DNA of 29,064 nucleotides from a virus: the UHGV virus genome UHGV-0076264; one strand, 5' to 3'. Below the pieces are notes generated by a model that worked only from the letters and a program-made list of their open reading frames with translations, was not told the origin of the DNA and made no database searches. This document shows positions 2,841-14,574 of this stretch, piece after piece. A program made the translations under genes and the position numbers. Position 1 is the stretch's first letter, and every line of letters begins with the position of its first letter.

Positions 2841-3548
2841 TTATCCTTCTGTTGCGGGTTGATGTGGTTCAGGGCATAAGCCGGACAGCACTTCACCTAT
2901 GAACCGGAAATGAGGTAATGCCTGTAAAAATTTCGGGCGAGAAAGGATGTCGCGCACCGTGGCGTCGGGTGTAAAAGTGTCCGGATGAAGCGTGACGCAC
3001 CGGATATCAGTCAGTGGCAGTGCGATGATGCGTGTCTGGTGTGCCCCTGTCAGATACCAGCTACCGGCATGCAGAACCAGGCGGTAGGGTGAGATATCCG
3101 TATGGTTGCATCCGTTGCCGTGCAGAGTCACTTTCCGGTATTCCTGGACAGCATTTACCAGCCGGATAAAGACTCCACTGTCGGTGACGGTCTGTGCAGA
3201 ATCTCCCTGCCAGATAAGGCAGGGAGATTCACCCGGCCCACCCAGAAGTGAACTGACCAGATGTCCGTCAAGTCCCGGAAACAGGGACTCAACGCCCGAC
3301 TGACGGGCAAAGGTTATCACTGCCAGTTCCCGCTGACGGCTGCCGGACAGCAGACGGCACTGGCCCTGTCGATACTCCAGGTCCAGGTACATCAGTCGTT
3401 CACGAAAATCCCGGCGCAGGGTACGAACTGACACGTCAAATTCAGCAGCCAGTTTGCGTATATCCAGCGTTTCGCCTGCCACCAGACGGCTAATAATTAT
3501 CGACAGTCTGACGGCAAGCCGGTCATGGCGATGCTCAGCCTGAGTCAT
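2841..3548 (-). CDS. WYL-domain transcriptional regulator with N-terminal HTH (YfjR-like), 235 aa
   Basis: N-terminal DeoR-like HTH (LDIRKLAAEFDVSVRTLRRDF), C-terminal WYL-like region (GSWYLTG); family recalled from CP4-57 yfjR. Confidence 0.75.
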   Translation of the reverse strand: MTQAEHRHDRLAVRLSIIISRLVAGETLDIRKLAAEFDVSVRTLRRDFRERLMYLDLEYRQGQCRLLSGSRQRELAVITFARQSGVESLFPGLDGHLVSSLLGGPGESPCLIWQGDSAQTVTDSGVFIRLVNAVQEYRKVTLHGNGCNHTDISPYRLVLHAGSWYLTGAHQTRIIALPLTDIRCVTLHPDTFTPDATVRDILSRPKFLQALPHFRFIGEVLSGLCPEPHQPATEG

Positions 3549-3761: not shown

Positions 3762-4637
3762 TCAGAAGAAAATCCAGTCCCAGACAGCCCGTGCAACCGA
3801 TACCACAGCATCACGCACGGTCCGAATCACCATTTTCAGCGGGGCGGGCAGGAGCAACGAAGACTCCGCCGTATCGAACACCCGCCCCACCGCTTCGCCA
3901 AAGCCGTCACGGGCCTGCGACCTGACCGGCTCCGTACAGAACCTCCCGTGTAACTGCGTCGCCACCGGACTGGTGGCGCGGTCAGGCAGACAGCGCATTA
4001 TGGTTGACACCATCTCTTCAATGCCCCAGCCGGTCAATGCTGACACCATGCAGACCGGATGACGGGGAGTGAATATCGTGGTAATGGCGGCCTGCTTCGC
4101 CTTCAGGTTAGCCTGCTGCTGTGGCGAGGGGGTGCCGGTACGGATATCCCATTCATGGCAGGGTTCGATTTTGTCGGCCTGATTCAGCACAAACAGCACC
4201 TGCTGCTGGTAAGGCTGCATCACACCGCGCCAGAACTGCTCGTCCACCGACAGCGCCCGGTCATCGGCCTTAATGACCCACAGCACCAGGTCCAGTTCCG
4301 GCAGCATACGCCGGTACAGGGCACGGTATTCATGGTCCCGTTGCCCGTTTTCTCCCACACCCGGTAAATCAACAATCATCAGACTGTGACGCCCGCTGCG
4401 TAGCCGGAAGCGCAGCACTTCACGGGTACAGACGTTCACATCACTGACGGGGGAGACCTCACCCCGGAAGAGTTCGTTACAGAGCGAAGACTTACCGGCA
4501 CCACTTTTGCCCATGATACCAATCACCGGCTCGTAGTGGGTGAGATTCTGAATACGTTCAAGAATAAGCTGGCGAAGCGTATCGGGAAGCGACGCCAGCG
4601 GTTGTTCAAGGGCCTGAAAGCCGTATGGTTTAGTCAT
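3762..4637 (-). CDS. GTPase with P-loop (YfjP/YkfA-like, 50S ribosome-binding GTPase family), 291 aa
   Basis: G1 motif GIMGKSGAGKSS, G3 DLPG, NQADK G4 motif; ATG at 4637. Confidence 0.8.
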   Translation of the reverse strand: MTKPYGFQALEQPLASLPDTLRQLILERIQNLTHYEPVIGIMGKSGAGKSSLCNELFRGEVSPVSDVNVCTREVLRFRLRSGRHSLMIVDLPGVGENGQRDHEYRALYRRMLPELDLVLWVIKADDRALSVDEQFWRGVMQPYQQQVLFVLNQADKIEPCHEWDIRTGTPSPQQQANLKAKQAAITTIFTPRHPVCMVSALTGWGIEEMVSTIMRCLPDRATSPVATQLHGRFCTEPVRSQARDGFGEAVGRVFDTAESSLLLPAPLKMVIRTVRDAVVSVARAVWDWIFF

Positions 4638-4650
4638 AAAGGGATCTCTG

Positions 4651-4695
4651 CATGAAAAAACAAAAATCCCCGCACTCCGGTAAGGGAGGCGGGGG
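4651..4695 (-). terminator. Intrinsic terminator-like hairpin plus U-tract 14 nt upstream of the GTPase start codon (possible leader attenuator or 3-prime end of an unannotated small RNA)
   Basis: Stem CCCCGC/GCGGGG plus CTCC/GGAG with one bulge (4668-4694), followed on the minus strand by ATTTTTGTTTTTT. Confidence 0.5.
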
Positions 4696-5704
4696 ATTCA
4701 CGGAGATAATATCTTTCTAAAATAATTTTTAATGCAATTATCCCCTGGGAGGGGGCTTCGGACCACGCGTGGGGTGTAGGTACCCTGAGAAGTTATCTTA
4801 GTCAAAATCTAACGATCATATCTTGTAATTTAAGTATTTTTTTGTGGATGTGTAACTATTTGTAAGTAAATATCATTTTTAATGAATATCGTTTTTTGTC
4901 ATATGTAAGCAATCCTGATTCCATTTCTAGTGGGGCTGTCTTGGTCTGCGACGTGATGAACAAATGGAACATTGATTAAATCAATGATGAAGGCTATCCG
5001 TGGCGGTGCTTTATCGTACTGAATACTGAAATTTTACAAGAAGTACATTACTTGGCACCGTGGTTTGAAGCAAAAAGGCATTAAGTTTTTGCAGGAACAT
5101 CTCGAAGAGCCAGAACGATTCTGGCTCCCGATAAAGATTTATTTAGCTCAGTCTTATCTGACTGAATAATAACAAACAGCCCCTTATGATGGTACGCCTC
5201 GTCTATTACCTAAAAATTAAAATGCTCATCCGCCGTCAGAGCCTGTTCATCAGCCTAAATCAGTCACAGCACTAGAACGAGGCGGGGAAGTAATTCATGG
5301 TACAGGGCTGCATACTCAACGTCGCGAGCTCTACTTTCCCTCCATGCTAGGTAGATCATCACCGCTTTTTACTTTCCTATTATGCGACCATTGGGGGCGG
5401 TAAAGCAGATTTACGTTCATGTATCAGCACACTCTGACACATGATGCAGTACATTCATTTGGCATTAATATCTTGCCACGCAGATGCTTTTAGTTTTTTA
5501 TTTGCTACATCGAAGATGCTAGCTCTGACGCAGGTACAATTTGTTTGCCAGCGGTAACGGCAGTAAGTCAGCCTCTTTGCTACTGCTTGTACGACAGGCA
5601 GCCAGCGAATAACATATTTATCAATGCGATGCAGCGATTTTAAGCGTATTATTTGCTACGCGTAGTAATCTACTGGATCTATTGGAAAGATATGGAGCCT
5701 GACG

Positions 5705-8359: not shown

Positions 8360-9240
8360 AGAATTAGGCTGTCTCCCTTAATTACGTAACCGTTGATAAA
8401 AGAGTCGGATGCAGCCCAGTTTCACCATCGCCAGATAATTTCTTGCCGTTTTGTCGTAACGTGTAGCGATGCGGCGGTATTCTTTCAGGTGACCAAAGCA
8501 CCGCTCAACGACGTTGCTATTGCGATACGCATCGCGATCAAGCCGTGCTCGTCCAACCGATGCCATTTTTTCATTTGATTTTCGGGGGATGACTGCCTTT
8601 AAGCCTTTATTTTTCAGCTCGTTGCGCAATGTGTGTCCGGAGTACGCTTTGTCGGCCAGCACAACATGACCACGGCGTTTTATGCAACCGTTCTGACGCT
8701 GAACGCCAATGCCGTCCAGAAGTCGTTGCGCAAACTGGCTTTCATGAGACTGCCCGGGGCTTAGCACGATATTTAACGGGAGGCCGCTTCCGTCTGTTGC
8801 CAGATGGATTTTGGTGCCAAAACCGCCTCGAGAGCGACCCAGCCCATTATCTTCGTCGATATCGGGATGTTTTTTGAGCTCCGGCGGCGCATTTTAGCGC
8901 CCGGATATTACTGCCATCCAGCGCTGTGGCAGACCAGTCAACAAAGCCGTTCGCATCAAGTCGTGAAAGCAATCTGTTAAAAATGATGTTAATCACGCCT
9001 GACTTTGACTACCTGTTAAAGCGGTTATTAACGGTTTTCCATGGCCCATATCGTTCGGGTAAATCGCGCCATGGTGCGCCGGAACACAACACCCAGAACA
9101 TGCCGTTGATGATTTTACAATGCTCTGCCCATGGGCGCCCGGCCTGTCGTGTGGCAGGTTCAGGGGGCAACAAGGGCTTGATGATGGCCCATGCTTCATC
9201 GGGGAGGTCGTAGCGAGTCATGGTTCAATATGTTGTAGAA
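8360..9240 (-). mobile_element. IS5-family insertion sequence (IS427/IS1031-like group), ends approximate
   Basis: Transposase in two frames: N-terminal part 9009..9221 with PWRDLPERYG motif and C-terminal DDE part 8378..8767, consistent with a frameshifted IS5-family transposase; inverted-repeat ends not resolved. Confidence 0.6.
8378..9221 (-). CDS. IS5-family DDE transposase, split over two frames (programmed frameshift or disruption)
   Basis: ORFs 9009..9221 and 8378..8767 on the same strand in different frames with about 240 nt between them. Confidence 0.55.
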
Positions 9241-14421: not shown

Positions 14422-14525
14422 TGCCTGTCAATTTTTATCAACAGGTGTTTTTCATAACGCAATGTTTTATAATGAATTACTTGTTTTAAGAGTAGATTTT
14501 TAAAGGGGTAAAAATATAATAACGT

Positions 14526-14574
14526 CGCATTCGTAATGCGAAGGTCGTAGGTTCGACTCCTATTATCGGCACCA
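14526..14574 (+). repeat. Attachment-site copy: 3-prime 49 nt of tRNA-Thr(CGU) (thrW), not a complete tRNA gene
   Basis: Anticodon stem-loop CGCATTCGTAATGCG (anticodon CGT), T-arm GGTTCGACTCC and acceptor 3-prime strand TATTATCGGCACCA are present; the D-arm and 5-prime acceptor strand GCCGATA are absent upstream. Confidence 0.8.

Follow-up and report, generated by a model that had tools for sequence, protein, structure and literature searches.

What does an intrinsic terminator do when it stands directly before a start codon? This question is raised by the 29,064-nt stretch of DNA analysed here (the window), in which the start of a minus-strand GTPase gene is closely preceded by a hairpin and a U-tract. 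The initial annotation of the site had left two answers standing. Either the GTPase is expressed only by read-through of the terminator, or the terminator forms the 3' end of a separate minus-strand RNA.

The genomic setting

The window represents a CP4-6-type, tRNA-associated island of E. coli. The RefSeq annotation of an identical strain gives the gene order as intF, yagN, an HTH gene, yagL, yagK, an IS5 remnant and a plus-strand gene for a TrlF-type ATPase, followed on the minus strand by the GTPase (3762-4637), a WYL regulator (2841-3548), small ORFs, a 312-aa ORF and DUF932 (50-868). Past DUF932, outside the window, lie the genes for antirestriction, RadC, DUF987 and CbeA/CbtA. Such a GTPase-led module (YeeP/YkfA/YfjP, DUF932, antirestriction, RadC, DUF987, CbeA/CbtA) is among the commonest accessory gene blocks in Enterobacteriaceae. 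The GTPase of the window (291 aa, MMR_HSR1-type) shares 53-54% identity with K-12 YkfA and YfjP, and its ATG at 4637-4635 is the same start as in RefSeq. The element under study is located in the 1.07-kb gap that separates the divergent TrlF and GTPase genes. A partial tRNA match adjoining intF (14507-14563, plus strand; model positions 9-63, 29.7 bits) is probably a tRNA-derived attachment site marking the island end.

The same gap also holds traces of older events. On the 5' side of the element there is a relic of a second GTPase gene (5072-5338, minus strand, as for the intact gene), which covers residues ~96-182 and has 55-61% amino acid identity to K-12 YkfA/YfjP, and an IS2-like fragment of ~74 nt is found at 5396-5469. 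Together, they suggest module replacement or tandem accretion.

A terminator directly before the GTPase gene

The minus-strand hairpin at 4694-4668 reads CCCCGCCTCC-CTTACC-GGAG-T-GCGGGG and forms a 10-bp GC-rich stem with a bulged T (4674) and a 6-nt loop (4684-4679; dG -18.7 kcal/mol). Directly 3' of it lies a 13-nt U-tract, A-UUUUU-G-UUUUUU (4667-4655). Thus, the stretch 4694-4655 has the two hallmarks of an intrinsic terminator, a GC-rich stem-loop and a U-rich tract following it on the transcribed strand, and by its sequence it probably does terminate transcription. A scan intolerant of bulges misses this hairpin, owing to the bulged T. When bulges were allowed, about 10 sites consisting of a hairpin and a T-tract were found at dG <= -12 on both strands of the 29-kb window, with 4694-4668 among the cleanest.

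The terminator before the ATG at 4637, as originally described, is therefore present with all its parts: the bulged 10-bp stem, the U-tract and the nearby start codon. Its closeness to the ATG also stands, whereas the distance of 14 nt, which had been counted from 4651, becomes 17 nt when measured from the last U of the tract. The SD (GAG, 4648-4646) lies between the U-tract and the ATG. Likewise, the view that this interval is too short for a promoter holds. The base breaking the T-run differs among copies (G, C, A or AA), and this lack of conservation leaves the sequence 3' of the stem without a -10. We tried a promoter composed of the hairpin loop and the U-tract (TTTACC-16-TATTTT, seen in some copies) and rejected it, as the A needed within the T-run is not conserved. 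As no promoter fits downstream of the U-tract, expression of the GTPase needs read-through, in agreement with the initial annotation.

The terminator is part of a widespread head element

How common is this arrangement? We compared a 201-nt query with 5426 complete E. coli genomes and found matches at 8883 places in 4172 of them, with a median of 2 copies and up to 7. Most of the matches listed cover only ~4653-4742, stopping at the end of the U-tract. Whatever DNA lies upstream, in every inspected place this element of ~100 nt abuts a YeeP/YkfA/YfjP-type GTPase gene or its remnant. To avoid circularity, another 47 loci from other Enterobacterales were collected by the GTPase protein alone, and some 45 of these 47 carry the ~100-nt head. 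In the protein-anchored loci the unit is laid out as ...TTCCAAATAATTTCAGAYAGATATTATCTCCGTGAATC, hairpin, T5-N-T5, CACGCTGAGA, N5-7 and ATG. Of 54 sources searched with a covariance model, 50 gave a single copy per locus, and this copy ended at the ATG. A hairpin with a T-rich tract is present in 43 of 46 protein-anchored loci, and in 40 of these the hairpin ends 25-32 nt before the ATG. Even ykfA and yfjP of K-12 have the same architecture, with wholly different stems set ~13 nt further downstream. The head pinpoints the boundary at which recombination joins variable cargo to the conserved module.

No match to the element was found in phage genomes, and only 28 plasmids were matched; of these, IncHI1A pNDM-CIT was inspected and proved to have the same module. 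On this conjugative plasmid (L055, 5001-5101) the head is kept although the GTPase is reduced to a 147-nt ORF, directly followed by antirestriction, RadC, DUF987 and YeeU/CbtA genes. Hence the head seems to travel with the module as a whole and not just with the GTPase. Two loci labelled as Bacillota and Clostridiales MAGs (L005 and L041) have an intact head and an enterobacterial GTPase (98% and 68% identity, respectively); they are probably mis-binned enterobacterial DNA.

Conservation in related islands had been proposed as a check on the terminator, and indeed the GTPase hairpin is retained there with compensatory changes. In a structure-blind MAFFT alignment, 7 of the 10 hairpin pairs have double-sided changes. 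In a model-fitted alignment of the whole structure, changes on both sides are seen in 14 of 19 pairs, and pairing is kept in 85.5% of cells compared to at most 59.8% with slid partners. In the shuffle control of covariation, the observed values were reached by none of 500 shuffles. At the same time, sequence identity of the hairpin is only 0.585 versus 0.71-0.76 for the CDS, and loop sequences vary between classes. This comparison of sequences indicates that the stem drifts while its pairing stays, that is, that the structure is under selection; such a pattern fits a generic terminator better than a site bound for its sequence. A different picture is seen in the ~38-nt block upstream of the hairpin, where pairwise identity is 0.76, dropping to <0.24 upstream of the block.

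A conserved dyad box resembles a promoter and an operator

The most prominent part of this block is a 25-bp dyad box, TTTAGAAAGATA-T-TATCTCCGTGAA (4721-4697, minus strand), with the consensus TTCA-N3-AGATA-T-TATCT-N3-TGAA. Across 31 distinct variants, mirror agreement is 65-100% at half-site positions 1-4 and 8-12 and only 0-19% at positions 5-7. A score of 9/12 is reached by only 0.1% of 25-mers of the window and a score of 8/12, that of the window's own copy, by 0.44%. In each of the 39 loci with a match to the exact dyad pattern there is one site, and in the protein-anchored loci it is the site directly 5' of the GTPase gene.

The box also contains a -10-like hexamer, TATTAT (4711-4706). 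A -35-like hexamer, TTAAAA (4732-4727; family consensus TTnAAA), is located 15 bp 5' of it, at the 5' limit of conservation. Should the box be a sigma70 promoter, transcription would be predicted to start at an invariant G (4699, minus strand), the seventh nucleotide after TATTAT. A sigma70 promoter has -35 and -10 hexamers, the latter with A-11 and T-7, set 16-18 bp apart; a 15-bp spacer is suboptimal. The family motif TATYAT is near-invariant, with G at -11 in 2 of 50 copies, and TATYAT-N5-TGAA keeps its spacing even in the K-12 variants, divergent as they are. Within TGAA, the G and the A are invariant (alignment A1). The -35-like TTnAAA scores 4/6. The pair TTAAAA-15-TATTAT aligns with TTGAAA-15-TATCAT, predicted in silico upstream of both ykfA and yfjP in K-12. 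In genomic SELEX with K-12, RpoD and RpoS holoenzymes bound the perR-ykfA and rnlB-yfjP spacers in vitro, at a resolution of whole spacers. With the O157 start-site data described below also weighed, it is about an even bet that the dyad box serves as a promoter/operator.

Two other candidates did not hold up. A plus-strand promoter (TTCACG-18-AATAAT) turned out to be no more than the dyad's mirror half, and the K-12 variants lack this promoter sequence. The WYL regulator YfjR was rejected as the protein binding the box, as published ChIP-exo experiments found no sites for it.

A mapped start site lies upstream of the box in O157

Cappable-seq data for O157 EDL933 list one TSS for each of its two copies (1,128,956 and 1,529,100). 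The TSS of the first copy is 230 nt upstream of the GTPase ATG and 7 nt after a perfect TATAAT; in our locus collection (L056, 345-357), this TATAAT region heads a leader of ~230 nt into the O157 GTPase gene. The TSS of the first copy appeared under 6 of 8 growth conditions, that of the duplicate island copy under 4 of 8. The start site of the first copy sits in variable DNA not common to other islands. Since transcription starts upstream of the element, the O157 box becomes part of the leader RNA, and the terminator resides in a genuine 5' leader. No TSS among those listed coincides with the predicted +1 of the box, and this pattern weakens the idea that the box is a promoter. In O157, the -35 of the box is degenerate (TCCTAA). 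The O157 box promoter may be silent, repressed or degenerate, or else its product of ~42 nt may have been lost in the Cappable-seq protocol. The initial annotation had found no convincing promoter at the locus. This needs amending insofar as the conserved TTAAAA-15-TATTAT arrangement adjoins the hairpin, yet it stands insofar as the start site mapped in vivo in O157 lies further upstream.

In the available part of the K-12 Cappable-seq data (U00096.2), plus-strand TSSs at 268110, 268186, 268258 and 268350 are antisense to the 5' region and leader of ykfA, and the one at 268258 is within a few nucleotides of the dyad box.

The upstream start in O157 also bears on a small-RNA explanation, in which the terminator would end a stable transcript that is processed from the upstream region or initiated there. 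In such an RNA the AU-rich box would be the seed or a protein-binding part, and the SD of GTPase mRNAs from several island copies per cell a possible target. The O157 start would yield an RNA of ~205-210 nt ending at the terminator. The box has a CUCC and shows complementarity to the SD region, and 2-7 copies are present per genome. A hairpin with a long U-tail is, moreover, the usual Hfq-binding module. Nevertheless, we consider a small RNA very unlikely. Conservation starts ~38 nt upstream of the hairpin, which suits either a promoter or a seed but not both, whereas the region where transcription would start is island-specific, and the O157 TSS itself lies in non-conserved DNA. The symmetry of the box, whose half-sites keep their mismatches at positions 5-7, resembles a DNA operator more than a helix. 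Rfam searches at both gathering and permissive thresholds returned no match at the site or elsewhere in the window. The small RNA is also not Esr41, which we had considered as the identity of the element; Esr41 maps to a different locus in OI-43, and its Rfam family has no match in the window at either threshold.

The particular RNA proposed earlier, a minus-strand transcript of ~120 nt with two further hairpins, had to be given up. The two extra hairpins, at 4740-4790, amount to just weak pairings in MFE and centroid folds and are not conserved; similarity to other islands ends at ~4742, and 4729-4865 corresponds to a decayed ORF end. This stretch (minus strand) has homologues in just two loci, L021 (Salmonella diarizonae) and L050 (Dryocola). 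Its counterpart in L021 is the 3' end of an ORF (...GPKIPPMKK*) that runs right up to the -35-like hexamer; the window no longer has this frame intact.

How might the terminator be overcome?

We looked for the features of a classical attenuator or riboswitch. There is no mutually exclusive antiterminator helix: the conserved RNA upstream of the hairpin is AU-rich, at most ~38 nt long and without complementarity to either terminator arm. Neither a leader ORF/uORF nor, by Rfam search, an aptamer was found in the leader. Given that an antiterminator fold, a uORF and an aptamer are all missing, termination would have to be relieved by leak or by a trans-acting factor.

The leader does have the potential to form an outer helix, P1, in which TTCATG-CA-GAG (4656-4646, minus strand) would serve as the 3' arm and pair with CTC-CGTGAA (4705-4697) of the box, so that the SD (GAG) becomes part of the helix. 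P1 is present in most single-sequence MFE folds, is paired in 85.9% of cases and has 5 pairs with double changes. It is maintained through indels (CUCUGUGAA/UUCACGGAG) as well as through class switches (CUGAA/UUCAG in K-12 versus GUGAA/UUCAC in the main class). In about half of the main-class variants its duplex energy beats random 11-mers at <=0.05; in the Yersinia/Serratia class it does not. Overall, the evidence for a real P1 helix is suggestive only. If real, P1 would silence translation solely of transcripts entering from upstream, because its 5' arm falls within what would be the promoter's discriminator.

P1 is central to an explanation at the level of mRNA and translation, according to which the hairpin is a 5' stabiliser or a spacer, while P1 (CUC-CGUGAA/UUCACG-nn-GAG) sequesters the SD in competition with a weak box hairpin (UUCA/UGAA plus AGAU/AUCU). 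With the 5' arm of P1 in the discriminator, only external transcripts would be silenced, following the fold-back logic of IS10. The persistence of P1 in MFE folds and through indels and class switches agrees with this proposal, and RNAalifold, too, proposes a hairpin within the box. Even so, we regard it as highly improbable. The pairs of the box hairpin never covary, and P1, besides failing in the Yersinia/Serratia class, has just a marginal edge over random 11-mers in many variants. A stabiliser, moreover, has no need of a conserved U-tract, and a GC-rich stem followed by 11-13 U-rich nucleotides terminates transcription whatever its other role.

Further terminators follow within the module

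The GTPase terminator is not the only one of its kind. The initial annotation had reported a second terminator before DUF932, and it is real: a 12-bp stem at 933-906 (minus strand; dG -17.6 to -23) with a T-tract extending to ~890, flanked by the stop of the 312-aa ORF (958), 24 nt upstream, and by the DUF932 ATG (868), ~35 nt downstream. We found another terminator-like hairpin, absent from that annotation, between these two. It comprises 7 bp (1951-1934, minus strand) and a T-tract; a 136-aa ORF stops 10 nt before it, and the 312-aa ORF starts 38 nt after it (ATG at 1896). Three co-directional terminators (4694-4668, 1951-1934 and 933-906) are thus arranged in series, each 31-41 nt before a start codon, which bears out the earlier remark that the pattern repeats within the module. 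Other loci extend this pattern. In this locus and 8 others, all nine DUF932 starts have their own hairpin and T-tract 25-30 nt before the ATG, making the repetition of terminators a property of the module. The stem sequences before DUF932 are unrelated among loci; that of 933-906 occurs in only 169 E. coli genomes. We also considered a terminator straight after the GTPase stop in other loci and discarded it, as most scan matches there are artefacts of C-terminal codons; clean hairpins follow the GTPase where DUF932 comes directly next.

Both downstream terminators come directly after stop codons, and this brings up a pure boundary terminator, that is, a 3' end signal of the upstream gene or cargo that shields the module without any regulated read-through. 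The conserved box would then be a protein-binding site or a 3' UTR unrelated to GTPase expression. The upstream neighbours are in part compatible with this: in 28 of 44 loci the ORF closest to the element on its upstream side points the same way, and in ~16 of these 28 it belongs to a very divergent family of ~300 aa and ends 2-38 nt before the box. We find this explanation unlikely all the same. The element is intact even where its upstream neighbour is divergent or degraded, as in 16 of the 44 loci and in this window, and its distance to the GTPase start is fixed regardless of the upstream DNA. It is also kept where the GTPase is truncated and the rest of the module remains. Finally, a mere boundary leaves the CDS-level conservation of the box unexplained.

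Members of the ~300-aa family include L007:985-1899, L023:1030-1902, L034:1032-1916, L027:836-1867 and L003:2095-3012, among others. The family has no Pfam or NCBIfam match. Its C-terminus has a ribbon-helix-helix-like look, and the family is absent from the window; no homology was found between it and the 312-aa ORF upstream of DUF932. We regard it as a candidate binder of the dyad.

A proposed default-off head for the GTPase module

We are inclined, by a modest measure, to view the intrinsic terminator within the conserved ~100-nt head as a default-off leader attenuator that doubles as an insulator for the GTPase module. The parts follow one another in a set order: the dyad box (TATYAT, with TTnAAA 15 bp upstream), a spacer of 0-15 nt, the hairpin, a U-tract of 11-13 nt, the SD and the ATG. 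Consequently, any RNA polymerase reaching the GTPase would have passed the terminator, whether it started at the box, as we infer, or at an upstream island-specific promoter, as is the case in O157. The head would act as an attenuator and insulator, off by default, at the point where variable cargo meets the conserved module, and the same device appears to be reused before the 312-aa ORF and before DUF932. Expression would then need either leak or a trans-acting factor. Such a head would explain the silence of the module genes in laboratory transcriptomes, and the dyad box together with the terminator provides a defined cis-target for studying module expression. The literature search produced no literal match to the sequence of the element. 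Apparently, the head is a widespread and not previously described cis-regulatory element built around an ordinary intrinsic terminator.

A bolder version would make the head the control point of island-wide processive antitermination, with a dyad-bound factor carrying the polymerase through at least three serial terminators. The whole GTPase/DUF932/antirestriction/RadC/CbeA-CbtA module could then be turned on at once, for example when the island is transferred or excised or when a phage attacks. Candidates for this factor would be the ~300-aa protein with its RHH-like C-terminus, the WYL regulator or a protein of a helper phage or plasmid. If this were true, one factor could co-ordinate several islands, since 2-7 copies are present in most E. 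coli. Among the window proteins tested, Pfam recognised no antiterminator domain, Q-type or other. The small HTH protein of the island (HTH_17) has no sequence similarity to any solved PDB structure, AlpA complexes included, and was therefore dropped as a possible relative of AlpA. We judge island-wide antitermination to be distinctly unlikely.

Comparison with known systems

Default-off attenuation by the head can be set against several known systems. Esr41 (RF02676), an Hfq-dependent sRNA of O157 OI-43/48, comes from the same island class and is likewise short, with a GC-rich terminator and a long U-tail; it differs from the head in both locus (between z1181 and z1182) and sequence. IS10/Tn10 offers a parallel in function. 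Davis, Simons and Kleckner reportedly found in 1985 that this element is protected from external promoters by fold-back inhibition. In both cases a mobile element would shield its first gene from read-in transcription, and in both, complementarity between the sequence just upstream of the start and the RBS would hit foreign transcripts only. Unlike IS10/Tn10, the head has a full terminator, which would act on its own transcripts too, and its P1 helix is only moderately supported.

Premature termination within 5' UTRs of E. coli has been catalogued by Term-seq (Adams et al. 2021, PMC7815308). As in those leaders, a hairpin and a U-tract lie between the TSS and the start codon, making read-through necessary. 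The differences are that the GTPase leader, with no visible alternative fold, uORF or sRNA site, is without an entry in the available K-12 supplementary tables of that study, where neither ykfA nor yfjP is listed, and that the head is present in multiple copies on mobile islands rather than in a core-genome regulon. The available supplements of SMRT-Cappable-seq likewise have no ykfA or yfjP entries.

There is also a formal resemblance to AlpA of P. aeruginosa. At PalpB-tB, a promoter-proximal terminator is overcome by this DNA-loaded processive antiterminator, which has been compared with phage lambda Q at PR'-tR' (PMC7969949). The head differs from these systems in several respects. It is unrelated in sequence to the ABE motif of AlpA (GGGACG-N5-GGTA); its 25-bp dyad spans the -10 and the putative start site; its terminator begins only ~5 nt after the predicted +1; and no cognate antiterminator was recognised among the window proteins tested. 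On the other hand, it shares with them an intrinsic terminator just before the first ORF, further terminators inside the operon and a location in horizontally acquired DNA. Their conserved DNA element between -35 and -10 may have a counterpart in the dyad box, which overlaps the -10-like hexamer and is statistically unusual. If read-through of the head proves to depend on a factor, a chromosomal-island example would join the small set of Q/AlpA-type systems.
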